Shown here: positions 6,334-45,091 of the stretch, piece after piece
Position numbering within the stretch: the first letter of the stretch is position 1
Layout: the number at the start of each line of letters is the position of its first letter
Assembly (NCBI GenBank): GCA_016200135.1
Contig: JACQFI010000044.1
Location: forward strand, 15,390-79,389
Source of the DNA: Planctomycetota bacterium
GTDB lineage: Bacteria; Planctomycetota; SZUA-567; H5-PLA8
Length of the DNA stretch: 64,000 nucleotides
Direction of reading: 5' to 3'
Notes under the pieces: model-generated
Database searches by the model: none
Told to the model about the DNA's origin: nothing
What the model saw: the letters and a program-made list of their open reading frames with translations, nothing else
Position numbers and translations under genes: made by a program

Positions 6334-6339
6334 GACCGC

Positions 6340-10659: not shown

Positions 10660-10916
10660 ACGGCGGCGCGTGGCGGCTCGAACGTTTCGAAGCGCTCTTG
10701 TAACGGTTAGGGACGTTTCCGGCTAGTAAACGGTTGGGATTAACACACGACGAAGCAGCCGCGCGTGGAAGCCATGCGCGGCCGTGAGAACTCCCATTCC
10801 GCGGCGAAGCGCGGAGAGAACATAGGGTTGCGGCGGTGCGGCATCATGGGTGGGACTATACCGCATGAACTTGGAGGAAGCAAATCGCATCAAAGTGGAT
10901 TGAAGGCAGCGGACAT

Positions 10917-11725: not shown

Positions 11726-11746
11726 TAGATTCCTCAGCCGATCAAT

Positions 11747-14059: not shown

Positions 14060-14261
14060 AGGCGAGGCACTTATCCTAAAATTCCGCTCGGGCGCAAGCG
14101 CCAGGGAATTCCGAACGACTTTCTTGACCAACTGCACGATGTGTAGTATTCTATAAGTTGAAGGAAGATATGTTGTTATATCGCGCTATATTTTCGCGTT
14201 ATCTTTCGGCAAGGACATAGGTTGCAGGAGTTTCAACTGGGTAACGCAGCAGGGAGAACAC

Positions 14262-15347
14262 GTGGGATTAGAATCGCTTACCGAGTCTCAACTCGTTGCC
14301 TACGGCTATTTCGAGAAGCTGCCCGATGGCCGTTGGGCCGTGGACCCCAAGCATCCTGAATGCGGATGTGTTGAAGGTCCGGCGGCCATCCAAGATCCCG
14401 CGATCTCGAAGGCCAAAGCCATTGGCAACTGCCAGCTCTGTTCAAACTGGAACCCGCGCGTCGGCTGCGTGCTGGGAAGCAATCTCGCACTCAGCGAAAG
14501 CCGTTGCAACCAATCGCCCATGCAGTTTGTGACGGAACAGGCCCATGCCTGGGTGGAGATCGGCCGCTTCGACCGGGCGATCTCGCGGCTGGAGACCTAC
14601 CTGAAGGCTCACAGCGACAGCCCCGACGCCTACTTGGCATTGGCCAAGGTGTACGACCATCCCGGATACCACGGCAAGGACAAGCGTCGCGCGATTGTGC
14701 TCTATGGGCGCTACATGGAGCTAAGAGGAAAGAACGCCCAATATCATCCTGAGTTCAAAAGAGCGGCGGTGCGCGTTCAGGTGCTGAGCCGGCAGGCGGT
14801 TCCGTCTTCCGCGGCAGCCGAAGAGGCGCCGCCTTTGGCCACGTTCAATTGCTTCCACCGCAGCGGGGGCCTCACCCACTTCTATGCCTGCGCGCTTACG
14901 TATGACGTGCTGGTGATGGCGTACGTGGGCGACGCCGACCCCGACTCGGGCATATCCTCGCTAGAGGTGGGCGAAACGTTCGAGAAAGCGACCTTTCTTT
15001 GGCGCAAGCTGATGGGCGAGAAAGACCTTAAACAGGAGATCGCGCTGACGGCTAAGGAGATCGAACACGTCAGTGGGCTTAATCCCGTGGCCATGGCCAA
15101 AGATCACCGTTCCAATCTCTGGATTCACCTCAACTCTGTCAAGAAGACCGCTGTCGAGGACGATGCCAAACGCGGTATCCGCAGGGTCACTATCTGGAGC
15201 GGCACGTCCGCCTATGAACTTCTCTTTCCCATGGCTCAAGCGAACCGAGCCGATCACGTCACGGCGCTGGTGCGCTTCCTTTCAAGCGAGGCCTCTCTAT
15301 CGTCCGTCACGCATCCCAAGACCAAATCTTCTTCGGTTGGCGCCTAG
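14262..15347 (+). CDS. Stand-alone paralog of the kinase C-terminal domain (unknown-function Cys-motif domain)
   Basis: GTG start with an AGGGAG RBS. Its 361 aa align end to end with residues ~470-813 of the downstream kinase. Shared blocks include YFxKxxDGRWxxD, CxLCxNWNxRxGC, GRFDxAIxxLE, YxxLAxxYxxPxYxGKDxxRAIxLYGRxxEL, FxCFxRSxG and DPDxGxS. Confidence 0.7.
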   Translation: MGLESLTESQLVAYGYFEKLPDGRWAVDPKHPECGCVEGPAAIQDPAISKAKAIGNCQLCSNWNPRVGCVLGSNLALSESRCNQSPMQFVTEQAHAWVEIGRFDRAISRLETYLKAHSDSPDAYLALAKVYDHPGYHGKDKRRAIVLYGRYMELRGKNAQYHPEFKRAAVRVQVLSRQAVPSSAAAEEAPPLATFNCFHRSGGLTHFYACALTYDVLVMAYVGDADPDSGISSLEVGETFEKATFLWRKLMGEKDLKQEIALTAKEIEHVSGLNPVAMAKDHRSNLWIHLNSVKKTAVEDDAKRGIRRVTIWSGTSAYELLFPMAQANRADHVTALVRFLSSEASLSSVTHPKTKSSSVGA

Positions 15348-23473: not shown

Positions 23474-23950
23474 CTACGCCTGCGGTTCATCGGTGCGCAG
23501 CGTATTGAGCTTCTCGCGCAGCTCCGAGACCTTTTGGCGCAGGTCCTTCACGCGGTTGATCTCTTCCTCCACCTCGCGGTCGCCGGCGCGCACGCTGGCC
23601 GTGGGGGAATCGTCCCACAGCTCCACAATCCGCTTGCCGAGCGCCGCGTAGGCGCTGTTCAGCGCGAGCTTCTCGCGTTCCAGATCGGCCTTGGTGATGC
23701 CCATCTTGCCGTACTTCTCGACCTTAGCGACGCCGATCTTGCCTAGGCGCTTGGCCTCGGAGCCGATGTCCAGCAGCGCGTCGCCGAGTTGGTCGAGGAG
23801 CCGCGTCTTGGACTCGGGCTGCCCGCCCGAGACCGATGCACCGCCGGAACTCGCGGCGCCCGATTGCGGATCTGCGGACGGAGCTTCCGGCTCGGCGGCC
23901 GGTTTGCGTTCGCTCTTGGACTTGCGGCTGCTCTTCGGGGACTTCGCCAT
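23474..23950 (-). CDS. Hypothetical protein with disordered basic N-terminus and coiled-coil C-terminus
   Basis: ORF with coding-like composition. Segments are heptad-like (LEREKLALNSAYAALGKRIVEL..., EEINRVKDLRQKVSELREKLNTL). Confidence 0.5.
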   Translation of the reverse strand: MAKSPKSSRKSKSERKPAAEPEAPSADPQSGAASSGGASVSGGQPESKTRLLDQLGDALLDIGSEAKRLGKIGVAKVEKYGKMGITKADLEREKLALNSAYAALGKRIVELWDDSPTASVRAGDREVEEEINRVKDLRQKVSELREKLNTLRTDEPQA

Positions 23951-24249
23951 GACGCGAGCGCTCCTAACTTGAGGTACAGGCGCTAAAAGGGGCAGTCAGT
24001 GAAGCAAGGAATGGAAACAGCTTAACAAAATCGCCGACCGAGGCAAGGAGCCCGCGCCGGCCACCTTGCGTAGTGGCCCTATTACGCTCCGCGCACCGGC
24101 TCTTTCACGATAAATTTCGCACCTTGGCGCAGTGCCTCAAGGACGGCATTTCACATCGGCTTCAATTCAGCCGTGCTTTGTGCCTTGACCTCTTTGCGCG
24201 AGCCCGATTACGCACGCGAAATCCCGGAGAGCCGCGGTAAACTTCGCGC

Positions 24250-25641
24250 ATGAACCCCATCGACCCGCGCTTCAAGACGATCATCGAGCCCTTCAAGCTC
24301 AAGATTGTCGAGCCGATCCCGTTCACGACGCGCGAGGAGCGCAAGGATCTGCTCGAACGCGCCGGCTACAATCTCTTCAATATCCCCGCCGAGAAAGTCA
24401 CCATCGACCTGCTCACCGACAGCGGCACCGGCGCGATGTCCGTCGAACAGTGGGCGGCGATGTTCCGCGGCGACGAATCCTACGCGGGCGCGTCGAGCTT
24501 CTACCGGCTCGAAAAAGTCGTGCGCGACCTGACGGGCTTTCCCCATTTCCTGCCCGTGCACCAGGGCCGCGCGGCCGAGAAACTGCTCTTCCAGGTCTTC
24601 GGCGGCACAGGCAAGATCATCCCCAACAACAGCCACTTCGATACCACGCGCGCGCACGTGGAGTTCAGCGGCGCGGAGGCCGTCGATCTGCTCGCGCCGG
24701 AATCCAAGGACACGCAGGTTAGCCATCCGTTTAAAGGCAACATGGACTTGGCGGCACTCGCGGATTTGCTTGCCAAAGAGCACGCGCGCATCCCGCTCGT
24801 CTGCCTGACCATCACCAACAATTCCGCGGGCGGGCAGCCGGTGAGCATGGCGAACATCCGCGGCGTCCGTGCGCTCTGCGACCAGTACAAGAAGCCTTTC
24901 TTCCTGGATGGCGCGCGCTTCGCCGAGAACGCCTACTTTATCCAGACGCGGGAGCCCGGTTACGCGGACCGTTCGGTGCGCTCCATCGCCGAAGAGGCCT
25001 TTCGTCTCGCCGATGGCTGCTGGATCAGCGCCAAGAAGGACGGCTTGGTGAACATCGGCGGCCTGCTCGCCTTCAAGGACGACGGCATCTACGAGCCGCT
25101 GCGCAATCTGCTCATCCTTCAGGAAGGTTTCCCGACCTATGGCGGGCTCGCCGGGCGTGACTTGGAAGCCCTCGCGGTTGGCCTGATGGAAGTCACCCAA
25201 GAAGATTATCTCCGCTACCGCGCCGCGACGGTGCAGTACCTCGGGCGCGGGTTCGAGGCCGCCGGCATCCCGGTCCTCAAGCCGTTCGGCGGGCATGCCG
25301 TGTACGTGGATGCCAAGAGCTTCTTGCCGCATATCCCGCCGCAGCAGTTCCCGGCGCAGGCATTCGCGGTGGCGCTCTATCTGGAAGGAGCAGTCCGTTC
25401 CGTCGAGATCGGCACGCTCATGTTCGGGCGCAAGGACCCCGCCACGGGGCAGGAACTTCCCGCGCCGCGTGAACTCGTGCGTCTCGCGCTGCCGCGCCGC
25501 GTCTATACGCAGGCGCACGTGGATTACTGCATCGAGGTCGCCCAGATTCTGGCGCGCGACAAGCACCTCATCCGGCCGCTGAAGATCGTCTCCGCGGCCC
25601 CCATCTTGAGGCATTTCACGGCGCGGCTTGCTCCTTTATAG
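24250..25641 (+). CDS. tnaA: Beta-eliminating lyase: tryptophanase / tyrosine phenol-lyase family (PLP-dependent)
   Basis: Nearly collinear with E. coli TnaA as I remember it: FKLKIVEPI, TIDLLTDSGTGAMS, FDTTRAHVE, SAKKDGLVNIGG (PLP-Lys region), QEGFPTYGGLAGRD, FPAQAF, RHFTARL. I cannot decide between indole-forming and phenol-forming activity. Confidence 0.85.
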   Translation: MNPIDPRFKTIIEPFKLKIVEPIPFTTREERKDLLERAGYNLFNIPAEKVTIDLLTDSGTGAMSVEQWAAMFRGDESYAGASSFYRLEKVVRDLTGFPHFLPVHQGRAAEKLLFQVFGGTGKIIPNNSHFDTTRAHVEFSGAEAVDLLAPESKDTQVSHPFKGNMDLAALADLLAKEHARIPLVCLTITNNSAGGQPVSMANIRGVRALCDQYKKPFFLDGARFAENAYFIQTREPGYADRSVRSIAEEAFRLADGCWISAKKDGLVNIGGLLAFKDDGIYEPLRNLLILQEGFPTYGGLAGRDLEALAVGLMEVTQEDYLRYRAATVQYLGRGFEAAGIPVLKPFGGHAVYVDAKSFLPHIPPQQFPAQAFAVALYLEGAVRSVEIGTLMFGRKDPATGQELPAPRELVRLALPRRVYTQAHVDYCIEVAQILARDKHLIRPLKIVSAAPILRHFTARLAPL

Positions 25642-25843
25642 AACCGCCGGTCACAAAATAGCGCATCCATGAAGCGCACACCCACGCTTGAGCCTGCCCC
25701 CGTAGGGTTTACGCTTCTTGAGCACCCCGTATGGATACTGCTATGTGCTGGCAGGCGCAAGAATTCGGACGCTTTAAGTCGAAAGGGTTTTGAAAAAGCG
25801 CACAATATAAGAAACTAGGACTTTCTAGTTCGTATGATAGGGT

Positions 25844-28834
25844 ATGCGCGTGCATTTCGGCGGGCGCGGAAGCTCCCAAATCGTGGGCAAACGTATGGTT
25901 CGTCGTATTCATAGTTGGGCCGTTCAGATCCGGACCTTCACGCTCGCCGCGTGCCTGCTCCTGGGCGGTGCCTTCGCCTTATCGAGAGGCGCCGCCGGCG
26001 AGGACCAGACCAAGAGCGACTCTGCGGACGCCGAAAAAAAGAAGAAGGAAGAAAAATCGAAGGAGCCGGAATTCAAGTTCGACGCCTGGTGCGCCTTCCG
26101 CGACTTCTCCAGCGCGCAACTGCCCCCGCCCGAACCCAACGCCGATCCCATGCGCCGGGACCACTCCCGCCCCGGTGCCAGCCAATGGCGCGGCTTCGCT
26201 CGGCACGGGAAGTGGGTCAACCTGGTCGTGGAACTTCAGAACACAGCCGAAAAAGACCCGTACACCGGCGCGATCCGCGTGCGGCTCGATCCTACGCAGG
26301 AGTCCACCGAGACAGGCGAGAAGCCCTACACCACGCGCTACCGCCAGGACTACGATCTGCCGCCTCAGACCACCAAGCGCTTCACGTTCAGCGTGCTTGC
26401 CCCGGAGTACACCTTCAACCAGATCGAGATCAACATCTCGGCCAATGGGCAGACCAAGACCCGCGTCCTGGTGCTCTCGGACCTCGACCAGAACGTGAAG
26501 AAGCCCGGCGAACTCGTCGTCGCGGTCTCCGACGAAGCCGGCGCATTCAAGTTCCTCACCTCGCGTTCAAAGAGCAACCCCGACGGCCTGGACGACGAAG
26601 GCATCAACCGCCAGGTCGCGGTGGTGCGCCCGGTCGATCTCCCCAGCCGCTGGTACGACCTGACGATGGCCAATCTGATCGTGATCGACAACCCGCCCCG
26701 CGAGGGCTTCACCGACGAACAGCTCGAGGCGCTCGAGGCCTACTGCCAGGCGGGCGGCCATCTCTTGATCGGCGCGGGCAAGGATCCCTCGCGCCTGGGT
26801 CCCAAAGAAGGCCAGTACCGCAGCCTCGCCGACCTTGCGGGCGTGCGCGTCAACGGCAGCGCGGCCGTCGCGCAACTCGACCTCTATCCGCCGGCCTTTA
26901 AAGGCACTGGCGAAGACTGGAAGCTCCCGATCGTGGACGTCTCGGTCAAGCCGGACCTCGAACACGTCTACGTCGTCAAGAACCAGGGCAAGGAAGGGTA
27001 CATCGAGGAAGTCGAGCGCGTCGTGGGCCTGGGTTCGGTGACGTTCCTTACCTTCTCGCTCAGCGACGAACAGCTTCAGGCCTGGGCCGGCCGGCAGCAG
27101 TTGCCGCTCTACCTGCTGGAAAACGCCGTGCGCCCGCCGCTCTTCGGGCTGGAAGACCCGCACCTCGAGAATAAGCAGGGCACCAATCAGTGGGGCTGGC
27201 CCACGGAAGATGCGGCCACGGGCCCCGACCGCGGCACGCTCTTCAAGCTGCGTAAGGACGTGGACGAGTCTTACACCAAAGATACCCCCGTCGAGACGCA
27301 GAAGAAGCCCTTCGTGGCCTCGTTCCTGCTGCTCTTCCTGCTCTTCGCGGTGCCGGGGAATTACATGATCTTCGGCTGGTTCAAGCGCCGCGAGATCGCG
27401 TGGCTCGCGGTGCCGCTCTGGGCCATGGGCTTCAGCGTTGCGGCGTACTTTATTGGCTATTACGGCCGCGTCGGCAAGCTGACCGTCAACGAGCTGTCCG
27501 TCGTCGAGGCCGGGCCAGGGCAGCAGTACGGCATCGGCCGCACATTTGTAGGCATCTATTCGCCCCGCCGCGGCGAGTACAAACTCGAGTTTAAGAGCGA
27601 TCAGGAGTGGGCTTCGCGCGTGCAGGCGGGGCCCGGGCACTTGATCCGCGACCTGCGCACGCGCGGCATCACCGACGTGCTGCCGGAACTCGACATCGTC
27701 ACCGAGGGCGGTGGAATGTCCGTCGAAAACCTCCTCGTCCAGGCCCGCGCCACGCGCCGCCTAGAGCTCAACCATCGCGTCGATCTCGGCGACGGCATCC
27801 GCGCGCGCATGAAGAGCAAGAACGCCTCGGGCGCTTCCGTCTACGAGATTTCCGTCCAGAACCAGACCTCGAACCAGATCATCGGCGCGGCGCTGATCCA
27901 TCGCGGACCGCAGGGCCTGCGCGGTTTCGAGATCGGCAACCTCGATCCCAAGATGGCCGAGGCCAAGGTGCTCGAAGCGCCCATCACGGACGGCGCGCCG
28001 TGGAAAGACGTCAGCGAAGCCTTCTTCAAGGATCCGCCGAAGTTCCGCTACGCCCGCGGCTCCGACGCCACCGACCGCGGCCGCGCGGTGCTGGAGTTCC
28101 TGCGCGCGCGAATCGAACTCTACGGCGAGTCCGTGCTCGTGGGCTGGATCGACGGCGGCATTCTGCCGGTGAAGGTCGACGGCGAAGATCCCGGCAGCTC
28201 GCGCGGCATGACGCTCCTGATCGTGCCGTTCCCGGAAGAACTCGGCCGCGGCAGCGCGCGGATCGCCCGCGGGCGCCGCATCCAGGTCTCGCCGGATTAC
28301 GACGTCATCCCCGCCAACAACAACTGGAAGGCGCTCAAGGCCGACGGCGGCTCAGCGCGTCTTTCCGTGCGCGGCCAGGACGAAGGCACGCTCGTCTATC
28401 GCACCACGCTGCCCCAGGACGAACTCAAGACGCTCGCCAACAAAACGCTCACGGTGGAGTTCAAGCTCCGCGCGCTCGGCGACCAGGAACTCGGCCCGCA
28501 GCGCGGCGGGCACAACGGCTTCCAGGGCCACCTCGTGGTCGAGGTCCAGGAGCGCGTGGGCAACCAGACGCGCTGGACGCAGATTCCTTCCGTCCAAGTT
28601 AAGAACATCCCGATCCCGTTCAATCTGAGTCCCGGGATGGCGTCCAAACCCATCGCCTTCGAGTGCCCCTTCACCCCTGCGCTGGCATTGAACCGGAATG
28701 TGACCATTAAGGTGACTACTCGGAAACTGGTCACGACGGGCATAGAGGAGGACAACGCCACCGAGTGGACGCTGGCCGTGGAAGCCTTCAAGCTCGACAT
28801 CGTGGACAAGACGAAACCGAAAGAAAAGCCGTAG
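25844..28834 (+). CDS. Large (996 aa) membrane protein, possible ABC-transporter auxiliary component (GldG/ABC_transp_aux-like)
   Basis: N-terminal hydrophobic signal/anchor, Lys/Glu-rich stretch, a central TM hairpin (FVASFLLLFLLFAVPGNYMIFGWF...WLAVPLWAMGFSVAAYFIGYY) and large extracytoplasmic domains on either side. It sits immediately upstream of the ABC ATPase and ABC-2 permease. The family assignment is inference. Confidence 0.65.
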   Translation: MRVHFGGRGSSQIVGKRMVRRIHSWAVQIRTFTLAACLLLGGAFALSRGAAGEDQTKSDSADAEKKKKEEKSKEPEFKFDAWCAFRDFSSAQLPPPEPNADPMRRDHSRPGASQWRGFARHGKWVNLVVELQNTAEKDPYTGAIRVRLDPTQESTETGEKPYTTRYRQDYDLPPQTTKRFTFSVLAPEYTFNQIEINISANGQTKTRVLVLSDLDQNVKKPGELVVAVSDEAGAFKFLTSRSKSNPDGLDDEGINRQVAVVRPVDLPSRWYDLTMANLIVIDNPPREGFTDEQLEALEAYCQAGGHLLIGAGKDPSRLGPKEGQYRSLADLAGVRVNGSAAVAQLDLYPPAFKGTGEDWKLPIVDVSVKPDLEHVYVVKNQGKEGYIEEVERVVGLGSVTFLTFSLSDEQLQAWAGRQQLPLYLLENAVRPPLFGLEDPHLENKQGTNQWGWPTEDAATGPDRGTLFKLRKDVDESYTKDTPVETQKKPFVASFLLLFLLFAVPGNYMIFGWFKRREIAWLAVPLWAMGFSVAAYFIGYYGRVGKLTVNELSVVEAGPGQQYGIGRTFVGIYSPRRGEYKLEFKSDQEWASRVQAGPGHLIRDLRTRGITDVLPELDIVTEGGGMSVENLLVQARATRRLELNHRVDLGDGIRARMKSKNASGASVYEISVQNQTSNQIIGAALIHRGPQGLRGFEIGNLDPKMAEAKVLEAPITDGAPWKDVSEAFFKDPPKFRYARGSDATDRGRAVLEFLRARIELYGESVLVGWIDGGILPVKVDGEDPGSSRGMTLLIVPFPEELGRGSARIARGRRIQVSPDYDVIPANNNWKALKADGGSARLSVRGQDEGTLVYRTTLPQDELKTLANKTLTVEFKLRALGDQELGPQRGGHNGFQGHLVVEVQERVGNQTRWTQIPSVQVKNIPIPFNLSPGMASKPIAFECPFTPALALNRNVTIKVTTRKLVTTGIEEDNATEWTLAVEAFKLDIVDKTKPKEKP

Positions 28835-28847
28835 AAAGGACCGAGCC

Positions 28848-29774
28848 GTGATCAAGATTCGCGGATTCACCAAGCGTTACGAGAGCTTCATCGCCGTGGA
28901 CGGCCTGGACCTGGACATCGACCAGGGCGACGTCTTCGGGTTCATCGGCCCCAACGGCGCGGGCAAGACGACCACCATCCGCTTCCTCACCACGCTGCTC
29001 AAGCCGTCCACGGGCCAAGCCTGGATCAACGGGCACTCGGTCACGCAGCAGGTGGACCAGGTGAAGCGCTCCATTGGGTTCATGCCCGATATGTTCGGCG
29101 TATACGACGGCATGAAGGTCTGGGAGTTCCTCGACTTCTTCGCCACGGCCTACGGCCTGCCGCGCGGCAAGCGCCGCGCGCTCATCGACGACGTGCTCGA
29201 CCTCGTAGACCTGACCCACAAGCGCGACACGCTGGTGAACGGGCTCTCGCGCGGCATGCAGCAGCGCTTGTGCCTGGCCAAGACGCTCGTCCACGACCCG
29301 CCCGTGCTGATCCTCGACGAGCCCGCCAGCGGGCTGGACCCGCGTGCGCGCGTCGAGATGAAAGCCTTGTTGCGCGAACTGCAGAAGATGGGCAAGACGA
29401 TCCTGATCAGCTCGCACATCCTTCCGGAGCTCGCCGACTTCTGCAATAAGATCGGCATCATCGAGCGCGGCAAGCTGCTCGCGGCCGGGCCGGTGAAGGA
29501 CGTGATCCGTTCGATCCGCCAGAACCGCGTGATCAAGATCATGCTCTCGCATCCGTCGGAGGCCTGCGAAGTGATGCTCGCGCACCACCCGCAGGTCCGC
29601 AACCTGAGCTCCGCCGAGATGGAGTTCAAGTTCGAGTTCAGCGGCAACGACGAGGACGTCCAGAAGCTGCACCACGACCTGATGACGGCCAACCTGCCCA
29701 TCGTCTGGTTCGCCGAAGTCGAGGCCGACTTGGAAGAGGCGTTCATGAAGATTACCAAGGGCTTGGTGGCGTAA
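28848..29774 (+). CDS. ABC transporter ATP-binding protein
   Basis: Walker A GPNGAGKTTT, signature LSRGMQQRL, Walker B LILDEPASGLD, H-loop SSHIL. Confidence 0.9.
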   Translation: MIKIRGFTKRYESFIAVDGLDLDIDQGDVFGFIGPNGAGKTTTIRFLTTLLKPSTGQAWINGHSVTQQVDQVKRSIGFMPDMFGVYDGMKVWEFLDFFATAYGLPRGKRRALIDDVLDLVDLTHKRDTLVNGLSRGMQQRLCLAKTLVHDPPVLILDEPASGLDPRARVEMKALLRELQKMGKTILISSHILPELADFCNKIGIIERGKLLAAGPVKDVIRSIRQNRVIKIMLSHPSEACEVMLAHHPQVRNLSSAEMEFKFEFSGNDEDVQKLHHDLMTANLPIVWFAEVEADLEEAFMKITKGLVA

Positions 29775-29808
29775 ACGCGCAAAGAAGAAGAGAAGACTCG
29801 ATACGAGC

Positions 29809-31707
29809 ATGGCTGAACCGACCGAAGTGACCCCGATCGAATTGCCGCCCAGCGGTTCCGGCGGAAGCGCCGCGTCGTCGGCCGGCAGAGCCGCCGCGCA
29901 AGCGGTTACGCCGCCGGGCGCCGCGCCATCGCCTGTGCAGATCGCCGCACAAGCTCAAGCCGCTGCAAGGTCAGCGGGCGCCGCCGGTTCGCCGCCCGCG
30001 CCCGGCGTAGCCGCGGACACCACGCAGCGCCGCCGCGCGGGCATCGCCAAGAAAGAGCCGCTCGGCTTCGGCGAACGCATCTTCCTCGCCATCGACAACC
30101 CCGTGCTGCGCCGCGAACTGCTCACCGCGCTGCGCTCGCAGAAGTCCTTCATCCTGCACTTCTTCTTCCTGCTGATCCTCGGCACGGTGATCTTCTTCGC
30201 CTGGCCCGAAGGCGAAGTGAGCATCGCCGATCTGCGCGCGCGCACCCTCTTCTTCATCTTCGGCGTCAGCCAGCTCATCATGATCTGTGTGCTCTCGCCG
30301 GCGTTCTCGGCGAGTTGCATGACTATCGAAAAAGAGCAGCGCTGCATCGACCTGCTCCTCACCTCCCCCATCCATCCCAATACGATTTTGATGGGCAAGT
30401 ACCTTAGTTCGGTGCTCTACATCTTCCTGCTCGTCATCAGCACCGCGCCCATCGCCTCGGTGATCGGCCTGTGGATGCCGGGCATCGACCCGTACCAGGT
30501 CGCGGGCCTCTACGTGTTGCTGCTCTCCGTCGCGGCGTGCTTCGGCATGATCGGCCTGACCTGCTCGACGTTCTTCCACCGCACGCAGACCTCGCTCTCG
30601 ATCACGTACCTGATCGTGCTCCCGATGGCGCTCGTCTTCCTGGTGATGGCGCGCACGTTCGACAACTTCTTCTCGCTCAACGTCTCCATCTGGCCCTCGG
30701 GGATGCTGCTGGTCGCATCGGCGGTGATGTACCAGTCCAGCGCGCGCCGCCTGCGCCAGCCGTTCGATCCGGTCTTCAAGGCCGCCGAGGAAGAGGACAT
30801 CTCGACGCAGACCGGCCTGGTGCTCGTGCGCGACCGCTTCCCCGATAGTTGGCTCGCGCCGCCCAAGAACGACGAACTTCTGCCCGACGGGACGAACCCG
30901 ATCTATCAAAAAGAGATCCGCAGCGAGATCTTTGGGCGCGGCACGCTCTTCCTGCGCCTCATCATCCAGATCAGCATGTTCCTCTCGGTCGTCTTCCTCA
31001 CGTTCCTGTACCTGCAAAAAGAGCACGTCTTCGTGGATTACCTGATCGTCTTCACGATGCTGGTCGCGCCGGCGTTCGCGAGCAACACCTTCACGCAGGA
31101 ACGCGAGCGCGGCACGCTGGATCTGCTCATGACCACCCTCATCCGCCCGGGCCAGATCATCGCGGGCAAGTTCGTCTCCTGCTGCCGGCTCTCGTTCTTC
31201 CTCACCGGCCTCATCGGCGTGACGCTCTTCTTCTATCTCCTCGTCGGCTACAGCCAGGCGCAGGGCGCGGCAGGCTTTATGGAGCGTATTGTCTATTTCG
31301 GCGTCTACCTGCTCATTCTCGCCGTCACGATCCTGCTCGAGACCTCGCTGGGCATGTTCCTCTCCATGATCTCGGGCTCGACCATGCAGAGCATGATCCT
31401 CACGTACACGGCGGTGCTGCTGATCTTCGGCGCGCCGGTGGCCGGCAAGGCGCTGATGCTGCTCACGATGCCGCAGAACACGTTCGAACTGTACCGCGCG
31501 CAGGTGGATTGGGCCTGCTTCACCAGTCCGTTCCAGGCGGTCTATTCCGTGACCGCCAAGACGCTGGGCAACACGCAGATGGTCGAGCAGCAGGTGATGA
31601 TCTGGCCCGCCTACGTCGCTTTCGCGCTCGGCACTACTGCGCTGCTGATGGGCTATATCTATTTTTCATTCGAACGTTGGGCCACTCACACGCAGAAGCC
31701 ACGATAA
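29809..31707 (+). CDS. Tandemly duplicated ABC-2 family permease with ~100-aa disordered Ala/Pro-rich N-terminus
   Basis: Two successive ~6-TM modules, each followed by an ABC-2 signature (EKEQRCIDLLLTSP; TQERERGTLDLLMTT). The disordered N-terminus suggests the real start may be downstream. Confidence 0.8.
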   Translation: MAEPTEVTPIELPPSGSGGSAASSAGRAAAQAVTPPGAAPSPVQIAAQAQAAARSAGAAGSPPAPGVAADTTQRRRAGIAKKEPLGFGERIFLAIDNPVLRRELLTALRSQKSFILHFFFLLILGTVIFFAWPEGEVSIADLRARTLFFIFGVSQLIMICVLSPAFSASCMTIEKEQRCIDLLLTSPIHPNTILMGKYLSSVLYIFLLVISTAPIASVIGLWMPGIDPYQVAGLYVLLLSVAACFGMIGLTCSTFFHRTQTSLSITYLIVLPMALVFLVMARTFDNFFSLNVSIWPSGMLLVASAVMYQSSARRLRQPFDPVFKAAEEEDISTQTGLVLVRDRFPDSWLAPPKNDELLPDGTNPIYQKEIRSEIFGRGTLFLRLIIQISMFLSVVFLTFLYLQKEHVFVDYLIVFTMLVAPAFASNTFTQERERGTLDLLMTTLIRPGQIIAGKFVSCCRLSFFLTGLIGVTLFFYLLVGYSQAQGAAGFMERIVYFGVYLLILAVTILLETSLGMFLSMISGSTMQSMILTYTAVLLIFGAPVAGKALMLLTMPQNTFELYRAQVDWACFTSPFQAVYSVTAKTLGNTQMVEQQVMIWPAYVAFALGTTALLMGYIYFSFERWATHTQKPR

Positions 31708-31740
31708 AAGATTGAATAGCTAAGGTTGAAGTTGCCGAAT

Positions 31741-32124
31741 ATGGAATCATGGTTACCGATCGTCGCTTTGATTGTCTTTGCAATAACCGGAAATCTCGTT
31801 TTCTGGTATTTTCATAGCCGCTGGAACCGACCGCTATACGCAATCATGTTAAGCAATTGGGCTAGCAAACAAGATTTTGAAATCGTTCAAACGAATGAAT
31901 CTGTATTCAGGCACGCACCATGTTTCGAGTGGCGTCGTTCAATTATTCAGATGGATGTGAGAATTCAAATTCGAGATAAGAAAGGCTGGACGCGGAAGGG
32001 ATGGGTTCGGCTCGGACATTGGCTCTACGGACCCAAGGTCGAAAAAGTGGAAGTCATCTGGGACCCTGCGCCTCACCTTGATTGGGAGAACGAGCACGGC
32101 CATGATGGCGGCTCCAAGCAATAA
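31741..32124 (+). CDS. Hypothetical small membrane protein encoded by a low-GC (~45%) patch
   Basis: One N-terminal TM helix (WLPIVALIVFAITGNLVFWYF). GC drops sharply relative to the flanks. I recognise no family. Confidence 0.45.
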   Translation: MESWLPIVALIVFAITGNLVFWYFHSRWNRPLYAIMLSNWASKQDFEIVQTNESVFRHAPCFEWRRSIIQMDVRIQIRDKKGWTRKGWVRLGHWLYGPKVEKVEVIWDPAPHLDWENEHGHDGGSKQ

Positions 32125-32150
32125 GGATCATGCAACCTGGAGCCTCGACC

Positions 32151-32966
32151 ATGAACTTCACCAAGCGCTATCGCGTTAAGCCGGGCTCCAAAGTTAAACT
32201 CAAAGAACGTGACCCGGACGACTCCGCGGGCTTCAAGAAGAAGGACCGCGAGGAGATCGAAGCGCTTGTCCGCAAGAACATCCAGCGCCTGGACGAACTC
32301 CAGTATCTGCTTTACGCCGAGAACAAGCGCTCCTTATTGATGGTGCTCCAGGCCATGGACGCCGCGGGCAAGGACGGCACCATCCGCCACGTGATGACCG
32401 GCGTCAATCCGCAGGGCTGCACCGTCACGTCGTTCAAAAAGCCCTCCGACGAGGAACTCGACCACGATTTCCTCTGGCGCATCCACAAGGCCGTGCCCAA
32501 CAAGGGCGACATCGGCATCTTCAACCGCTCGCACTACGAAGACGTGCTGGTGGTGCGCGTGCACGAGATCGTACCCGAAGAGGTCTGGGCCGAGCGCTAC
32601 GAGCAGATCAATCGCTTCGAGAAGCTTCTGGCCGACAACAATGTCGTGATCGCGAAGTTCTTCCTGCACATCGGCAAGGATGAACAGCTCCGCCGCTTCC
32701 AGGACCGCCTCCAGGACAAGAACAAGCACTGGAAGATCAGCCCGTACGATTTCGCCGAGCGGAAGTATTGGAACGAGTATCAGAAAGCCTACGAAGACGC
32801 GCTCTCGAAATGCAGCACCGCACACGCGCCGTGGTACGTCATCCCGGCCAATAAAAAATGGTTCCGCGACCTGGCGGTCTCGCAGATCCTCGTCGAGACG
32901 CTCGAGTCGCTCGACATGCGCTTCCCCGAGCCCAAGTTCGATATCTCAAAGATCAAAGTGGAGTAA
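32151..32966 (+). CDS. ppk2: Polyphosphate kinase 2 (PPK2) family nucleotide phosphotransferase
   Basis: Walker A-like MDAAGKDG, PPK2 blocks FNRSHYEDVLVVRVH and the lid region, ~270-aa single-domain form. I chose ATG 32151 (GGAG 8 nt upstream); the ORF starts at 32130. Confidence 0.85.
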   Translation: MNFTKRYRVKPGSKVKLKERDPDDSAGFKKKDREEIEALVRKNIQRLDELQYLLYAENKRSLLMVLQAMDAAGKDGTIRHVMTGVNPQGCTVTSFKKPSDEELDHDFLWRIHKAVPNKGDIGIFNRSHYEDVLVVRVHEIVPEEVWAERYEQINRFEKLLADNNVVIAKFFLHIGKDEQLRRFQDRLQDKNKHWKISPYDFAERKYWNEYQKAYEDALSKCSTAHAPWYVIPANKKWFRDLAVSQILVETLESLDMRFPEPKFDISKIKVE

Positions 32967-33046
32967 GCTTCGAAGAACCAAATGAAAAGAACCAAGAACC
33001 AAACGTTGTGGACTACGAACCACAAACCCTAAACCCATGAGCACTG

Positions 33047-33688
33047 ATGTTGCCTCCTGAACCCTACGCTCTGACCGTGGACGCCGCGGTGCCAATGCGC
33101 TGCCCGGCGTTCGCGCTCGAAGACCTGCGCGTGAAAGCCGGGGACGCTGCGCTCAAACTCGCCATCGAGCTTCTCAGCGATGAATACCACGCAAAGTTCG
33201 CGGGGCTTGAGATCGGCCAGGTGCCGGGCATTAGCGAAGTGCGCGCGAGCTACAAGGCGCTCGGCATCGACCCGACGAAGACGCGCCCGAGCTCGGAGGC
33301 CCTGCTGCGGCGCGTCCTGAAAGGACAGGGACTATACACCGTCAACACCCTTGTGGATGCGCTGAACTTCTGTTCGCTGCGCTATCTCGTCCCGTTCGGC
33401 CTGTACGACCTCGCGAAGGTGCAGCCGCCCGTGGCCGTGCGTGTGGGCCAGGAAGGAGAGGGCTACGAAGGCATTCGCAAGGACCGCGTGAACGTCGCCG
33501 GCCGCGCGTGCCTCGCCGACGCCGAGGGCCCCTTCGGCAATCCAACGTCGGACAGCGACCGCACCAAGATCACGCTCGAGACCACGCGCGCCTTGGTGGT
33601 CCCGTTCCTGCCGCTCTCGCTGAACGAAGCGCGTGTGAAGGAAATCATGGAAGGCACGGCGGTGACGCTGCGAAATTACTCGGCGTAA
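33047..33688 (+). CDS. B3/B4 tRNA-binding domain protein (PheT B3/4-like stand-alone)
   Basis: YKALGIDPTKTRPSSEALLRRVLKG...YTVNTLVDALNFCSLRYLVPFGLYD is the characteristic core of the B3/4 domain (PF03483). Confidence 0.7.
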   Translation: MLPPEPYALTVDAAVPMRCPAFALEDLRVKAGDAALKLAIELLSDEYHAKFAGLEIGQVPGISEVRASYKALGIDPTKTRPSSEALLRRVLKGQGLYTVNTLVDALNFCSLRYLVPFGLYDLAKVQPPVAVRVGQEGEGYEGIRKDRVNVAGRACLADAEGPFGNPTSDSDRTKITLETTRALVVPFLPLSLNEARVKEIMEGTAVTLRNYSA

Positions 33689-33804: not shown

Positions 33805-35145
33805 TCATTTCTCCGGCGCGGACTCCGCCTTCACGTTCTTCATCTCGTTCCCTTCCAGCTTCAGGCCCTTCACGTCCTTGCCGATCTTGAAGCCGGGCTT
33901 CTCCGCGGACTTTGAATACCCAATCGTATTCTTGCGGAAGACAAGGTCGTTCGTCTGGCCGAGGATGCGCACGGGCGCGGCATCGGGCTGCTCCAGGCCG
34001 TTGTCCACGATCTCGTTCTCTTCGAAGACGTTGCGGTGCGCGCCCATCGGCTCGTCCTCGTTGCGGAAGAGCACGCCGCTCTTGCCGTTGCCCGCAATGC
34101 GGTTCTTGCGGAAGACGTTGTCGGTGTCCTTGTGCCCGATCGAGATGCCCTGGCCTTTGTTGCCCTCGATCACGTTGTCCTCGAAAACGCCGTCCTTCAC
34201 GCGCCAGCAGACGAAGATTCCGTCGCTCCCGTTATTGAGCGAGCGGTTGCGGCGCAGCACCGGATCGCCCGAGCCGCTGCCGGGATGCAGCCCAAGCTGC
34301 GCGCAGTCTTCCACAAGACAGTCTTCAACCGTGACGTGGTTCGAGACCTGGAACGAGATCCCGTCGCCGTTGTAGCCGCGGACGGTGCTATGGAGAATCG
34401 CGATGCGCTCGCACTCGAAGAGGTAAATGCCGCCGCCACGGCAGCCGTTGAGCGGCTGCGCTTTCGCGCGATTGCCCTCGATGCTTAAGCCCTCGACGCT
34501 TGCATTCTTCACCTGGTATCCGGCGATGACCGGAAACGTCAGCCGCGCCGTGGCCTCCTGGGCGACCATGTAATCGTAGTACAGCGGCGTGGAGATGCGG
34601 AACGTGTTCGCGTCCACCTTGGCAAGCAGCGTCGCCGTGGTAACGCCGAACCCGCCGCCCATGTTCTTGTCCTGCACGCTGATGCCGTCGCCGCTGCGGA
34701 AAACCGAGGCGTCCGCCAGCGTTACTTGCCGCTCGTTGCAGTCGCCATCGAGCTTCAAACGCGTCTCCGCGCCGTCGCATGCGGAGAAAATAGTTTTGCC
34801 GTGCGTGCCGGTGACGTGGACGCCGTTTCTCAGGAACAGCGCGTTGCGCATCGTGTAACGGCCGGGTTCGACGCGCACCACGCCGCCGCCCAGGTTGGCG
34901 ACGTAATCCACCGCCGCCTGAAGCGCGCGGTGATCGTTGCCACGGATATCGCCTTCGTCCTGGCCGACGGTGATCTCGACGGGTGCATGCATGGCCTGGT
35001 CTCCTCGAACGGCAACGGCGTTCGCGTTGGAAGCGTTTGCGCCGTTCGTCCCATTCGCCTCGCGGTTCTTGTTGGCTTCTTCGGCCGCGCGCGCGGGTCC
35101 GAAGAGAAAGAACATCGCCAGCAGCGCAACGCACATCCTTCGCAT
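33805..35145 (-). CDS. Secreted right-handed parallel beta-helix repeat protein (pectate-lyase-fold)
   Basis: Signal peptide MRRMCVALLAMFFLFGPARA. It has repeated NxxxxN/GNxGxGI motifs typical of PbH1 repeats (NVIEGNKGQGISIGH, NRIAGNGKSGVLFRN). Confidence 0.75.
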   Translation of the reverse strand: MRRMCVALLAMFFLFGPARAAEEANKNREANGTNGANASNANAVAVRGDQAMHAPVEITVGQDEGDIRGNDHRALQAAVDYVANLGGGVVRVEPGRYTMRNALFLRNGVHVTGTHGKTIFSACDGAETRLKLDGDCNERQVTLADASVFRSGDGISVQDKNMGGGFGVTTATLLAKVDANTFRISTPLYYDYMVAQEATARLTFPVIAGYQVKNASVEGLSIEGNRAKAQPLNGCRGGGIYLFECERIAILHSTVRGYNGDGISFQVSNHVTVEDCLVEDCAQLGLHPGSGSGDPVLRRNRSLNNGSDGIFVCWRVKDGVFEDNVIEGNKGQGISIGHKDTDNVFRKNRIAGNGKSGVLFRNEDEPMGAHRNVFEENEIVDNGLEQPDAAPVRILGQTNDLVFRKNTIGYSKSAEKPGFKIGKDVKGLKLEGNEMKNVKAESAPEK

Positions 35146-41227: not shown

Positions 41228-41338
41228 CCTTCTTCGAGGTATACAAAAGTAGTTTGAATTGTGCATTTCTGCGGTAGGTTCAACCGTCAGTGCCCATAAA
41301 CGTTGCGTTATCAGGGTGTCCTTTTAGGGGGGGACCCC

Positions 41339-44300
41339 ATGAGCAGTATGATCGTCATATGCGCAGGGTGCGGCAAGAAGTACAAGGGCGCGCCCAGCCA
41401 GAAGAAGTTCAAGTGCGGCCAATGCGCCAATCTCTACACGTTTCCGGTCGGCGCGCAGTCGCCCGGACCCGGCAAGCTTCTCTGTTCCTGCTGTTGGATG
41501 CAGCACGCCAATACGCCGGCCCTCAAAGAGTGCTCTCAATGCAAGCAAAAGATCTCCTCCAAGTTTGTGGGCAAGGCCCTCTGGATTGCGTCGCTTCCGG
41601 CCAATGAAGTCGAAGGCGACGAGAGCGGCGGCGGTACGGCGCCCAAGTCTCCGGCGAAGCCCAGTTCCGTCTTCCTCAAGCAATCGCCCTTGGCGGCCGG
41701 CGGCGCGAAGCTCTCCAACCCCGGCTTGAAGGTAGCGCCGCCCGCGGGCCCCAAACCCTCAACCCCGGGCGTTAAGGCCGCGCCTGCAGCGCCCGCAACC
41801 GCTTCGCGTGTGGGACCTGCCACGGGGCCTGCCCCTGCAGCCGTCACGCCGTCTTCGGCAGCGCTCAAGAGCGCTCCGGCTCCGGCAGGCGCCTCGCGCG
41901 TCGGCGCGGCGGCTCCCGCGCCCCGGCCGTCTTCCGCGGGGTTCAGGGCCACGCCCACGCCTGCGAGTGGCACTCGAGTTGTTCCAAGCGCGCCCAAGGC
42001 CAACACGGGACTGGACATCTTTCCCAAGCCCGCGCCGGCTCCGGTCAGGATCTCCAGCGCGGGCCTGAACGCGGTGCCGCCCAAGGCGCCTGCGCAGGCT
42101 CAAAATGTAGATGCCGATATATCCTCGATCTCTTCCTTCTTCGACGACGCCGACAAGGGTCCCATGAAGCCCTTGGCCGAGCCTAAGAAGGAGGAATCCT
42201 CGGCGGCCATCGATCCCACTCTCGCCGCCGCGGTGCTCAAAGAAGAACTCAAGGCGACCAAGTCGTCGGCCTCCAAGTCGGCCGTGCCTGCGGTAAAGAT
42301 GCCGGCGTCGGCCAAGTCCTTCGCCGGCGGCCTGCTCGGCCAGCTCTCCGCGCCTTCCACCACTTCCAATCGCGCCCCTGTGCCCAGCACCGATCTCGAA
42401 ACGCGCCTGATGCACGAGATCAAGCATGCCGAGCAGCTCTGGCGCGACCTTGAAGCCGCGCGCAAGGCTCTAAAGGAAAAAGGCGGCCCGTCCGCGGGCA
42501 TCGCCGAGTTCCAGGAGCGCCTCCTCGCCAAGGATCGCGAGCTCTCGCAGGCCCGCGCGGCGCTCGACGAGAACCGCAAGAAGCTCGCCACGCTCCCCAA
42601 GCTGGAAGCGAAGCTTGCCGCCGAGACCGAGGCGCGCGAGGTCGCCCACCAGGCGCTCGAAGAATCCGAGAAGGCGATGCAGCAGTTCGAGACGCGCATC
42701 GCCGAGCTCGAAGCGCAGCTCAAGAGCGCCCCTGCCGCGCCGGCAGCCGATCCCGCAGAACTCGCGCAGGCGCGCGCGGACCTCGAGGAGAAGGCGGCCC
42801 AAGCCGCCGATCTCGAAGGGCAGCTCGCCGCCGACCGCCAGGCGCTCGACGTGGCCATGCAGGAGAAAGAGACCGCCGAGGACGCGCGCTTCAAGCTTGA
42901 AGTCCGCCTTGCGGAGACCGAGAAGAAGCTCGCCGAAATCCAGAATCAGGCCGCCGCGTCCAGCCAAGCCGGAGAGGCCGCGAAGCAGCTCGAGGACGAA
43001 CTGAGCCGCGCGAGCAAGGCCGCCGAGGAAAACGCCGCCGCCGCCGAACAGGCCCGCCAGGAACAGGAAGCCGCCTTCAAGGAACTCGAGGCCGCGCAGA
43101 AGGCCCTCGAAGACGCGCGCGCGGCCGCGGCCTTGGCCGCGGAAGAGTTCGAACGCAAGCTCGACGACGAGCGCCGCGCCAAAGCGGGCGTCGAGATCGC
43201 GCTCAAGGCCGCCGAAGAGGGACGCGCCGGCGAAGAGACGGGCCGCAAAGGCCTCGAAGCCCGCGTCACCGAGCTCGAACAGCAGCTCGCGTCCGCCCAA
43301 GAACACCTGGAGTCCGTGCGGCGCGCCGCGGAGTCTTCCCAGGCCGCCACCGTGGAGCTCGAGAAAGCCCAGAAGGACATCGAGGCCTTCCAGTCCACGG
43401 TCTCCGCGCTTACGACGCAGTTCGAGGAGGAAAAGCGGGCCCGCGAGGCCTCCGAGAAACTGCAAGCCGCGGCCGAAAACGCGCGCGAAGCGGCCGAGTC
43501 GCGCCTGAAGGACCAGCAGACCCGGCTCACCGAGACCCAGAGCCAGCTTGCGGGCATGCAGCGCTTCGAGGAAGAGCTTGCGCAGGTCCGTCTCGAGCGC
43601 GACAAGCTCCAGGCCAAGGCCGATGAGCTCGACCAGCGCCTCGCCGAGGAACTCAAGTCCGGCGAGACCTTCCGCCTGGAATGGAACAAGCAGTCGCAGC
43701 TCCGCAAGACGCAGGACGCCAAGCTCGAAGAACTCAAGGACCAGTTCGACGCCGAGAAGCAGGCCAAGGACGCGGCCGTAGCTCAGCGCTACGAGTTCGA
43801 GACCAAGATCAAGCAGCTCGAAGGCGACCTCAACGAGCTTCAGAAAACCTACGCCGAAGACCGCAAAACGCTCGAAGAGCAGCAGCACCAGCTCGACACT
43901 GCCTCCGCCTCAAAGGACGAACTGGAACGCAAGCTCGCTGAGGCCGAAAAGGCCCTGGCCGAGGCCCGCGCGGCGCAGGAGGCCACCGGCAAGGCCCAGG
44001 CCGGCGCCGACCAGGCCCGCCAGGAGTTCGAGCAGAAGGCCGCCGAACTTCAGCAGTCGCTAGGCGCCGCGCAAAAGGAATGCGACGACGCCAAAGGCGA
44101 GATCGAGAAGCTCACGAAATTCCGCGAGGGCCTGGAAGCGCAAGTCAAGGAACTGCGCGCCGCCGCTCAGGCAGCCCCGGCAGGCGCGGCAGGCTCGCCT
44201 CCGGCCGCCACGGCCGGCGGCTCCGTCGAAGTTGAGGAACTCCGCAAGCAGATCGACATCCAGCAGGCCGAGGCCATCCAGGCCAAGGGGCTGCTCGCCG

Positions 44301-45091
44301 CCAAGGAAGAAGAACTCGATCTCATCAAGAAGATGCTCATCGAGTCGCTCTCGCCGCTGGTGCCCGCGTTCCGGCAGGCCCTTGAAACCGTGCGCAGCGA
44401 GGCCGAGCAGCTCGTCACGATCGTGACGCAGGTCCGCCAGACGCTCGACGCCTCCGCCGGCGATCCGGAGAAACTTCGGGAAGTCGCGCAGGAAGTCGTG
44501 CAGATCGAATCCAACGCGGTGGGACTTCAGGGAAAGATCGCGCTCACCAACCGGCAGGTGATCGGCCAGCTCGCCAACGTGATCGGCGTGCCCACGGAGG
44601 AAGGCGAGGCCGAGACGGCCCGCGCTTCCGGAGCCGCACCGGCCGTATCCACCGAAGCGCCTCCGCCCGAGCCCGCAGCGCAGGCCGAAGTCGTCGAGGC
44701 CGGCGAAGTGGAGGCCGAAGAATCCCCCGCTCCGGTGGAAGCGCCCGCCGAAATCCCCGCGGAGCAGGTCGAGGCCGAAGCGGCGCCCGTGGAAGAGCCC
44801 GATCCGCCCAACACGCCCGCGGAAGTCGAAGCCATCCAAGCCGAACTGGCCCAGGACGACGACGATGAAGAGGCGGATGAGGCCCCGAATTCCGCGGCTT
44901 CCAAGCCGATCTCTTCCAAAAAGCCGTCGGCCTTCACTTCCGCCCATCGCCTGAAGATGCAGGCCAAGGCCAAGCCCGCGGCTTCAAACGATGGCGCAGA
45001 AGAAGGCGAGGCCCCCGCCGGCGACGAGTCCGCCGACGCCCAGAAAAAAGGCGGCTTCTTCAACCGCTTCTTCGGCGGGAAGAAGAAATAG
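41339..45091 (+). CDS. Giant (1,251 aa) protein: N-terminal tandem zinc ribbons + Pro/Ala-rich repeat linker + ~900-aa coiled coil + acidic segment + basic C-terminal tail
   Basis: ATG with a G7 RBS-like run upstream. Zinc ribbons CAGCGKKY...CGQC and CSCCWMQH...CSQC. The linker carries repeated S(S/A)AGxxAxP...ASRVG motifs. Then comes a long heptad Ala/Glu/Lys/Gln/Leu-rich region, an EAEA/PAP acidic region, and the end ...KKGGFFNRFFGGKKK. The antisense ORFs are artefacts. Confidence 0.8.
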   Translation: MSSMIVICAGCGKKYKGAPSQKKFKCGQCANLYTFPVGAQSPGPGKLLCSCCWMQHANTPALKECSQCKQKISSKFVGKALWIASLPANEVEGDESGGGTAPKSPAKPSSVFLKQSPLAAGGAKLSNPGLKVAPPAGPKPSTPGVKAAPAAPATASRVGPATGPAPAAVTPSSAALKSAPAPAGASRVGAAAPAPRPSSAGFRATPTPASGTRVVPSAPKANTGLDIFPKPAPAPVRISSAGLNAVPPKAPAQAQNVDADISSISSFFDDADKGPMKPLAEPKKEESSAAIDPTLAAAVLKEELKATKSSASKSAVPAVKMPASAKSFAGGLLGQLSAPSTTSNRAPVPSTDLETRLMHEIKHAEQLWRDLEAARKALKEKGGPSAGIAEFQERLLAKDRELSQARAALDENRKKLATLPKLEAKLAAETEAREVAHQALEESEKAMQQFETRIAELEAQLKSAPAAPAADPAELAQARADLEEKAAQAADLEGQLAADRQALDVAMQEKETAEDARFKLEVRLAETEKKLAEIQNQAAASSQAGEAAKQLEDELSRASKAAEENAAAAEQARQEQEAAFKELEAAQKALEDARAAAALAAEEFERKLDDERRAKAGVEIALKAAEEGRAGEETGRKGLEARVTELEQQLASAQEHLESVRRAAESSQAATVELEKAQKDIEAFQSTVSALTTQFEEEKRAREASEKLQAAAENAREAAESRLKDQQTRLTETQSQLAGMQRFEEELAQVRLERDKLQAKADELDQRLAEELKSGETFRLEWNKQSQLRKTQDAKLEELKDQFDAEKQAKDAAVAQRYEFETKIKQLEGDLNELQKTYAEDRKTLEEQQHQLDTASASKDELERKLAEAEKALAEARAAQEATGKAQAGADQARQEFEQKAAELQQSLGAAQKECDDAKGEIEKLTKFREGLEAQVKELRAAAQAAPAGAAGSPPAATAGGSVEVEELRKQIDIQQAEAIQAKGLLAAKEEELDLIKKMLIESLSPLVPAFRQALETVRSEAEQLVTIVTQVRQTLDASAGDPEKLREVAQEVVQIESNAVGLQGKIALTNRQVIGQLANVIGVPTEEGEAETARASGAAPAVSTEAPPPEPAAQAEVVEAGEVEAEESPAPVEAPAEIPAEQVEAEAAPVEEPDPPNTPAEVEAIQAELAQDDDDEEADEAPNSAASKPISSKKPSAFTSAHRLKMQAKAKPAASNDGAEEGEAPAGDESADAQKKGGFFNRFFGGKKK

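Follow-up and report, generated by a model that had tools for sequence, protein, structure and literature searches.

A three-gene ABC-2 system with a hairpin-anchored periplasmic subunit and its possible role in the cell envelope of Planctomycetota

Introduction

ATP-binding cassette (ABC) systems of the ABC-2 type that depend on an accessory protein, such as GldAFG, are widespread and functionally opaque; the best understood is NosDFY. Here, we ask what kind of machine is encoded by three adjacent genes, for a large accessory protein, an ABC ATPase, and an ABC-2 permease, that lie at positions 25844 to 31707 of a 64,000-nucleotide (nt) stretch of DNA from an uncultured Planctomycetota bacterium (GenBank assembly GCA_016200135.1, contig JACQFI010000044.1, positions 15,390 to 79,389), referred to below as “the window.” An initial annotation, made from the sequence alone, had read the three genes as an operon for an export or motility-like apparatus, likened the large protein to GldG, and suggested a surface-polymer or gliding-associated exporter. 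We find that the genes form a conserved unit with a fused permease and an accessory protein of distinct design, and we put at about 0.55 the probability that they encode a self-contained ABC-2 machine that depends on its accessory protein and acts on the cell envelope as an exporter or mechanotransducer.

Results

A conserved three-gene operon

The listing of open reading frames (ORFs) and their translations confirmed three co-directional genes where the initial annotation had placed them:

25844..28834, + strand: accessory subunit gene, 996 amino acids (aa), supported by its ORF, base composition, 20 full-length homologues, and an AlphaFold2 (AF2) model
28848..29774, + strand: ABC ATPase gene, GTG start, 308 aa
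29809..31707, + strand: ABC-2 permease gene, 632 aa

The G+C content at third codon positions (GC3) is 0.86, 0.94, and 0.88 for the accessory, ATPase, and permease genes, respectively, which is typical of true coding frames in this window (overall GC, ~63%). Coding-like GC3 and the many homologues of all three proteins rule out chance ORFs. The accessory and ATPase genes are 13 nt apart and the ATPase and permease genes 34 nt, each gap one nucleotide shorter than first reported, and an AAGGA motif lies 8 nt 5′ of the ATPase GTG start. Alignment of the accessory homologues begins at Met18, so the true start of this protein may be at 25895 rather than 25844.

That the genes form an operon-like unit, as their tight spacing had suggested, is supported, and their order is kept across phyla. 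A word-indexed search returned 20 full-length relatives of the accessory protein, all unnamed and all from Planctomycetota metagenome-assembled genomes (MAGs) or metagenomes, and a scan of GTDB returned 13 loci, again all from Planctomycetota MAGs. Using tblastn, we found the order accessory-ATPase-permease in loci L001, L005, L007 to L012, and L014 to L019; it is kept in 12 of the 13 distinct Planctomycetota loci with sufficient downstream sequence (in L013, the sequence stops within the permease). Within this family, identities to the window proteins are 38 to 65% for the accessory protein, 57 to 89% for the permease, and 79 to 95% for the ATPase; the three proteins co-diverge. Clustering of the flanking ORFs revealed that, beyond lineage-level synteny, only the trio is conserved among related loci. 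The other genes scanned in the window are all unrelated to gliding, type IX secretion, or polysaccharide export, and the link to gliding or exopolysaccharide proposed at the outset is not supported.

An accessory protein anchored by a central hairpin

The AF2 model of the accessory protein, built from a 21-sequence alignment (mean predicted local distance difference test [pLDDT], 76.6; predicted template modeling score [pTM], 0.77), together with hydropathy and family alignments, divides it into five parts:

25928..25984, + strand: signal peptide or signal anchor, aa 29 to 47 (hydropathy)
26072..26527, + strand: predicted periplasmic Ig-like beta-sandwich, aa 77 to 228 (AF2 secondary structure, invariant alignment columns)
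26609..27133, + strand: GATase1-like/GIFT alpha/beta domain, aa ~256 to 430 (no Cys nucleophile motif)
27305..27463, + strand: central transmembrane (TM) hairpin, aa 488 to 540, with helices at 488 to 513 and 516 to 540 (hydropathy, AF2, superfamily alignment)
27482..28804, + strand: predicted periplasmic beta-rich C-terminal domains, aa 547 to 987 (no curated family match)

The N-terminal signal or anchor, the Lys/Glu-rich segment, and the central hairpin noted in the initial annotation are all present. In the family alignment, the signal segment is followed by a conserved K/E-rich linker (aa ~55 to 75) and the motif EPxFKxSAWCAF, and the Ig-like domain carries the conserved motifs NTTEK, PYTTRYRQ, and FSVLCPE. 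Hydropathy, the AF2 model, and the positive-inside rule place the hairpin turn, KRRE, in the cytoplasm, and the regions on both sides of the hairpin are therefore predicted to be periplasmic. These correspond to the two large extracytoplasmic domains described earlier, except that each is a multidomain region.

The hairpin is the most conserved element across the wider superfamily. Residues invariant at this depth (G304, G397, P504, E517, A519, W520, and F530) and those nearly invariant (G305, G395, Y507, and P524) all lie in the GIFT core or the hairpin. The alpha/beta domain belongs to a GIFT/GATase1-like fold class shared with GldG, IFT52, and OST48, and the accessory subunit in this respect resembles that of GldAFG. 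A catalytic glutamine amidotransferase role for this domain was considered and rejected, given that no conserved Cys nucleophile occurs among the invariant alignment columns. Part of the C-terminal region (aa 547 to 987) resembles mu-homology or arrestin-like beta folds.

Curated models touch only the alpha/beta domain, with subthreshold Pfam matches to DUF4350 (E value, 1.4e-4), ABC_transp_aux (0.059), and IFT52_GIFT (0.1). The comparison with ABC_transp_aux and GldG, proposed at the outset as a check, went against a GldG assignment: ABC_transp_aux (PF09822) reached 13 bits against a cut-off of 34.7 and spanned just 34 aa, and a scan of NCBIfam at E values of ≤0.1 gave no match, including to GldG (TIGR03521). 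No NosD or Beta_helix match was found in Pfam, and nothing assigned the protein to an unrelated family. A sequence search of the Protein Data Bank (PDB) yielded nothing useful with the accessory protein itself and only IFT52 with the family profile (E value, 0.15), while matches of the superfamily profile were limited to GATase1-like structural-genomics proteins. No Pfam or NCBIfam model covers the conserved hairpin or the C-terminal half.

A fused permease with a conserved inter-module linker

The permease contains two complete ABC-2 modules in tandem, as first described. Two Pfam models each match it in two stretches (PF12679 [ABC2_membrane_2], 71.4 bits against a cut-off of 27.2; PF01061 [ABC2_membrane], 40.2 against 26.9), its halves share a 45-aa coupling-helix motif (36% identity; E value, 5e-9), and AF2 modeling with 46 homologues (pLDDT, 76.9; pTM, 0.75) gives 6+6 TM helices. 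Its parts are as follows:

29809..30063, + strand: Ala/Pro-rich disordered N-terminal extension, aa 1 to 85 (AF2, tblastn)
30067..30753, + strand: permease module 1, aa 87 to 315, with interface helices, 6 TM helices, and the coupling-helix motif EKEQRxIDLLLTSP
30754..30897, + strand: cytoplasmic inter-module linker, aa 316 to 363 (alignment invariants; low-confidence structure prediction)
30898..31692, + strand: permease module 2, aa 364 to 628, with 6 TM helices plus external helices between TM5′ and TM6′

The disordered extension is thus present but closer to 85 than to the ~100 aa first estimated. Its pLDDT is below 50 over residues 1 to 42 and 54 to 76, and it is lineage specific: it is not conserved beyond close relatives, and tblastn matches elsewhere begin at aa ~70 to 83. 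The linker has invariant residues P318, G336, F344, P345, D346, and P351 within the pattern PFDP...QTGLVLVRDRFPD...LLPDG.NP and may be where the ATPase or the accessory hairpin docks.

Although a sequence search of the PDB gave the permease no match, Rv1217c included, the first Foldseek hit of the model was the fused mycobacterial permease Rv1217c (8k1n/8k1p), aligned over its full length. NosY followed with half-length matches (TM-score up to 0.72), and then came CcmB, ABCG25, and PmtCD. We conclude that the ABC core is an ABC-2 transporter of type V whose 12-TM transmembrane domain is a fused pseudo-heterodimer.

A strongly constrained ATPase

The ATPase matches ABC_tran (PF00005) at 104 bits against a cut-off of 25 and has a DrrA1-3_C C-terminal domain; judged by sequence, it is a DrrA/CcmA/ABCA/NosF-type ABC ATPase. 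The top curated models, both below their cut-offs, are drrA (252 bits) and GldA (212.1 bits). Its closest solved relatives are the nucleotide-binding domains of ABCA3/4/1/7, followed by the structural-genomics bacterial proteins 4yer and 1vpl and then by NosF and Rv1218c (PDB E values of 2.6e-66 for ABCA3, 4e-38 for NosF, and 5e-36 for Rv1218c). Among 14 orthologues, the intact motifs of Walker A, the signature, Walker B, the D-loop, and the H-loop are invariant, including the sequences GPNGAGKT, LSRGMQQR, LILDEP, and SSH. The Q-loop Gln is replaced by Asp in an MPD sequence that is invariant in the same orthologues; the corresponding position of Rv1218c is Asp90 (PMC11406275). An identity of 79 to 95% in a family whose accessory protein retains 38 to 65% indicates unusually strong constraint for an ABC ATPase, and this constraint includes the DrrA-type C-terminal domain.

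A wide and unnamed accessory superfamily

An exhaustive profile search with the accessory family recovered more than 5000 cluster representatives (50% identity) at E values of ≤1e-3, including 133 at ≤1e-30. The best-scoring stretches of distant matches usually comprise the hairpin and the next beta domain (profile positions ~440 to 690). Among 58 diverse members, we detected DUF7408 in 33, DUF4350 in 20, GATase1_like in 6, and IFT52_GIFT in 2. The named members are all called “hypothetical protein” and come from Planctomycetota and Chloroflexota. The superfamily has no name of its own, and curated models give only weak matches to the GIFT core. Our literature searches found no paper describing the accessory family, none on DUF7408, and nothing functional on ABC_transp_aux, GldG structure, or Planctomycetes in combination with MoxR.

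We sampled eight distant loci (L020 to L027) in which the accessory protein is ~25% identical to that of the window, the ATPase is 54 to 62% identical, and the permease is 25 to 45% identical. All eight have an ABC ATPase of 308 to 320 aa directly 3′ of the accessory gene, and in seven this is followed, on the same strand, by one or more ABC-2 permease genes; in L024, the permeases are divergent and lie just upstream. Stop and start codons in these loci often overlap. After the permease, half of them (L020, L021, L025, and L027) encode a membrane protein, here called X, and MoxR, and some add DUF58 (L021, L025, and L027), BatA/VWA (L025 and L027), or a protein combining VWA and GATase1_like (L027).

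Protein X is conserved but unannotated and without a Pfam match, has ~3 TM helices and 400 to 600 aa, and in the distant operons is always flanked by the ABC-2 permease and MoxR (L020, 12894-14102; L021, 6682-7992 and 8002-8367; L025, 14311-15945; L027, 6483-8279); its C-terminal part is sometimes a separate protein of ~120 aa. The Planctomycetota accessory protein has some 300 additional residues at its C terminus; the idea that they correspond to proteins X or Y, encoded downstream in these operons, was discarded, as there is no similarity. One metagenomic contig (L023) has two paralogous trios arranged divergently, head to head (5417-9719, − strand, and 10001-14937, + strand), with an additional ABC2_membrane_2 gene and an SBP_bac_1 gene nearby; the accessory-ATPase-permease module evidently duplicates as a unit.

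Upstream region and neighboring genes

The operon is preceded by one feature of possible regulatory interest:

25642..25843, + strand: intergenic region of 202 nt with lower GC, presumed promoter/leader of the operon

Within it, the sequence AACTAG-N6-CTAGTT (25813-25830) is a perfect 6-bp inverted repeat that ends 13 nt 5′ of the operon's first ATG and may be an operator or an RNA hairpin. We found no sigma-70 consensus match in this presumed promoter region, no riboswitch or other RNA family in an Rfam scan of 23900-33200 at E values of ≤1, and terminator-like sites only at background rate, none of them significant.

A small ORF on the + strand (31726-32124) begins 19 nt past the permease stop codon. 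It has a TTG start with an in-frame ATG a few codons on and encodes 132 aa with an N-terminal hydrophobic helix, its GC is below that of neighboring genes, and it has no family match. We rejected it as a fourth component of the system because L007, the closest locus, is the only one with a homologue at the same position (40% identical); the ORF may be either a fourth gene specific to the lineage or a small, independent membrane protein. The genes that come next (32130-33688, + strand) encode a polyphosphate kinase of the PPK2 family (TIGR03709, 405 bits) and a protein with a B3/4 domain, and the synteny of PPK2 with the trio is again confined to L007. On the opposite strand, 2 kb downstream of the trio, lies a gene for a NosD/right-handed beta-helix protein (446 aa; 33805-35145). 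Despite the NosY-like fold of the permease, it is probably unrelated to the trio because it is not conserved beside the trio in other loci.

Two genes farther away also stand out. The AT skew is extreme (0.36 at 42 to 44 kb) in the region of a 1262-aa ORF (41303-45091, + strand), which also has many long overlapping shadow ORFs; this ORF weakly matches an intermediate-filament or coiled-coil model and nothing else, and its product is probably a large repetitive coiled-coil protein. A 384-aa protein (1087-2241, − strand) has an Arf/Ras/RagA-like, eukaryote-like small GTPase domain in a Planctomycetota context.

Discussion

How might the three proteins work together? We propose a single machine of the cytoplasmic membrane, composed of the fused 12-TM permease, two copies of the 308-aa ATPase, and the dedicated accessory subunit. 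Two ATPase copies are proposed by analogy with Rv1217c-Rv1218c, in which one permease pairs with two ATPases (PMC11406275). The signal peptide would export the accessory protein and the central hairpin would hold it in the membrane, where the conserved Pro, Tyr, Glu, and Trp residues of the hairpin most likely dock onto the permease. Conserved linkage, co-divergence, and the clustering of invariant positions within the hairpin all argue for a stoichiometric, permease-docked subunit. An Ig-like sandwich, a noncatalytic GATase1-like/GIFT domain, and the beta-rich domains of the C terminus would then be displayed in the periplasm, some 850 aa in all. Cytoplasmic ATP binding and hydrolysis would power the permease, which would either pass an amphipathic envelope component, at best guess a lipid or a lipid-linked glycan, to the periplasmic scaffold or drive the scaffold mechanically.

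We favor an envelope exporter or mechanotransducer because a type V fold is combined with a periplasmic, nonenzymatic, and possibly glycan-binding scaffold. Sugars or lipid-linked oligosaccharide are proposed ligands of GIFT domains (PMC7226087), and DUF4350-type proteins have been linked to GldG and predicted to act in envelope secretion or remodeling complexes (PMC5898192). By comparison with characterized systems, the closest mechanistic models would be NosDFY or GldAFG rather than a drug pump.

Several observations weigh against this reading. Every Pfam match of the accessory protein falls under its curated cut-off, and L003 has no permease within 10 kb after the ATPase. Some distant loci encode the permease as a single module or split it over two genes. 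The neighborhood gives no clue to the substrate: no glycosyltransferase, lipid gene, or regulator is conserved around the trio, and no riboswitch was found. The X, MoxR, DUF58, and BatA/VWA genes of distant loci are absent from this window, and because those loci carry components that the window lacks, the Planctomycetota trio may be functionally incomplete by itself. The analysis establishes the genes, their order and co-inheritance, the folds, the intact ATPase motifs, and the predicted topology; a physical complex, its stoichiometry, the transport direction, and the substrate class are inferred.

Two established systems offer ready-made identities for the locus. As a true orthologue of GldA-GldF-GldG of Bacteroidota (TIGR03522/03518/03521, PF09822), it would be a gliding-motility or surface-adhesin-associated ABC transporter, and the general layout fits: a DrrA-like ATPase, an ABC2_membrane_2-type permease, and a membrane-anchored periplasmic accessory protein with a GIFT/GATase1-like domain. 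The ATPase and permease do match the GldA and GldF models, but at 212.1 and 74.1 bits against equivalog cut-offs of 402.6 and 288.5, and drrA outscores GldA; to this are added the missing GldG match and the subthreshold ABC_transp_aux score. GldG has N- and C-terminal membrane anchors around one periplasmic region, whereas the accessory protein here is almost twice as long, combines a signal peptide with a central-hairpin anchor, and has additional Ig-like and beta-rich domains. Furthermore, the permease here is a tandem fusion, the host and all close relatives are Planctomycetota, and no gld, spr, or type IX secretion system genes occur among the ORFs scanned across the window. Since thresholds and topology fail and a gliding context is absent, we do not assign the locus to GldAFG; membership, as the initial annotation had suggested, is largely refuted, and we consider orthology very improbable. 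No better are the prospects of a NosDFY-like system for metallocofactor maturation (7o0y, 7qba, and 7znq), in which an ABC-2 permease and ATPase likewise serve a large periplasmic partner powered by cytoplasmic ATP hydrolysis. NosY is the top half-length structural match, NosF is among the PDB matches of the ATPase, a NosD/beta-helix gene lies nearby, and permease homologues carry the automatic JGI name “multi-copper enzyme maturation permease.” That name, however, is a generic COG1277 label, the nearby gene does not accompany the trio elsewhere, and NosY is present in 7o0y as two chains (D and E) rather than one fused polypeptide. NosD is a beta-helix protein, the accessory protein has no beta-helix match, and neither nosZ nor nosL is found near the trio; lacking both a NosD-type partner and nos genes, the locus is not a NosDFY member.

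It is also improbable, if somewhat less so, that the large protein is a mere neighbor and that the ABC genes encode a DrrAB- or Rv1217c-Rv1218c-type pump for the efflux of small molecules (drugs, toxins, or peptides). The best NCBIfam model of the ATPase is drrA, albeit below cut-off, and the closest solved fold of the permease is that of a rifampicin-resistance pump. In this Mycobacterium tuberculosis pair (8k1m to 8k1p), two nonidentical type V transmembrane domains are fused and served by an ATPase homodimer that shares the Q-loop Asp (PMC11406275). Yet no similarity was detected between the sequences of the two permeases, and the mycobacterial pair is a drug exporter that works with no accessory subunit. 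The accessory gene here is linked to ABC genes in 21 of 22 independent loci, at ~25 to 90% identity and in at least two phyla, often with start and stop codons overlapping or 0 to 20 nt apart. A more substantial rival, which we still regard as doubtful, is that the trio is one module of a larger MoxR-DUF58-BatA/VWA (“Bat-like”) system for envelope assembly or remodeling whose AAA+ and VWA partners are encoded elsewhere in the genome. The operons of distant accessory relatives point this way, and DUF4350/arCOG01314, DUF7408, and GATase1_like (PF07090) proteins appear to share with the accessory protein a membrane-anchored, extracytoplasmic flavodoxin-like/GATase1-like domain (Makarova, Galperin & Koonin 2015, PMC5898192). 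The archaeal DUF4350/arCOG01314 proteins differ in having a single C-terminal TM helix and no described ABC-2 partners. No homologue of MoxR, DUF58, BatA/VWA, or X is found in the window or in the flanks of any Planctomycetota locus, and the other four of the eight distant loci also lack MoxR, DUF58, and BatA/VWA genes. A self-contained envelope machine remains our preferred interpretation.

The combination of a fused permease with a hairpin-anchored, multidomain periplasmic subunit is a distinct architecture conserved across phyla. Its recurrent linkage to MoxR, DUF58, and BatA/VWA genes in other phyla provides a concrete handle on long-unexplained operons. We tentatively suggest that the hairpin-anchored GIFT proteins might be a large, undescribed class of ABC-2 accessory proteins that mechanically link a cytoplasmic ABC motor to MoxR-DUF58-BatA/VWA envelope systems. 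If so, the trio would be an ATP-driven platform for periplasmic assembly or export rather than a solute pump, and Bat-like operons would gain their first testable energy-coupling mechanism. For Planctomycetota, in which envelope biogenesis is poorly understood, the system and its strongly constrained ATPase (79 to 95% identity) are nominated as an envelope machine.

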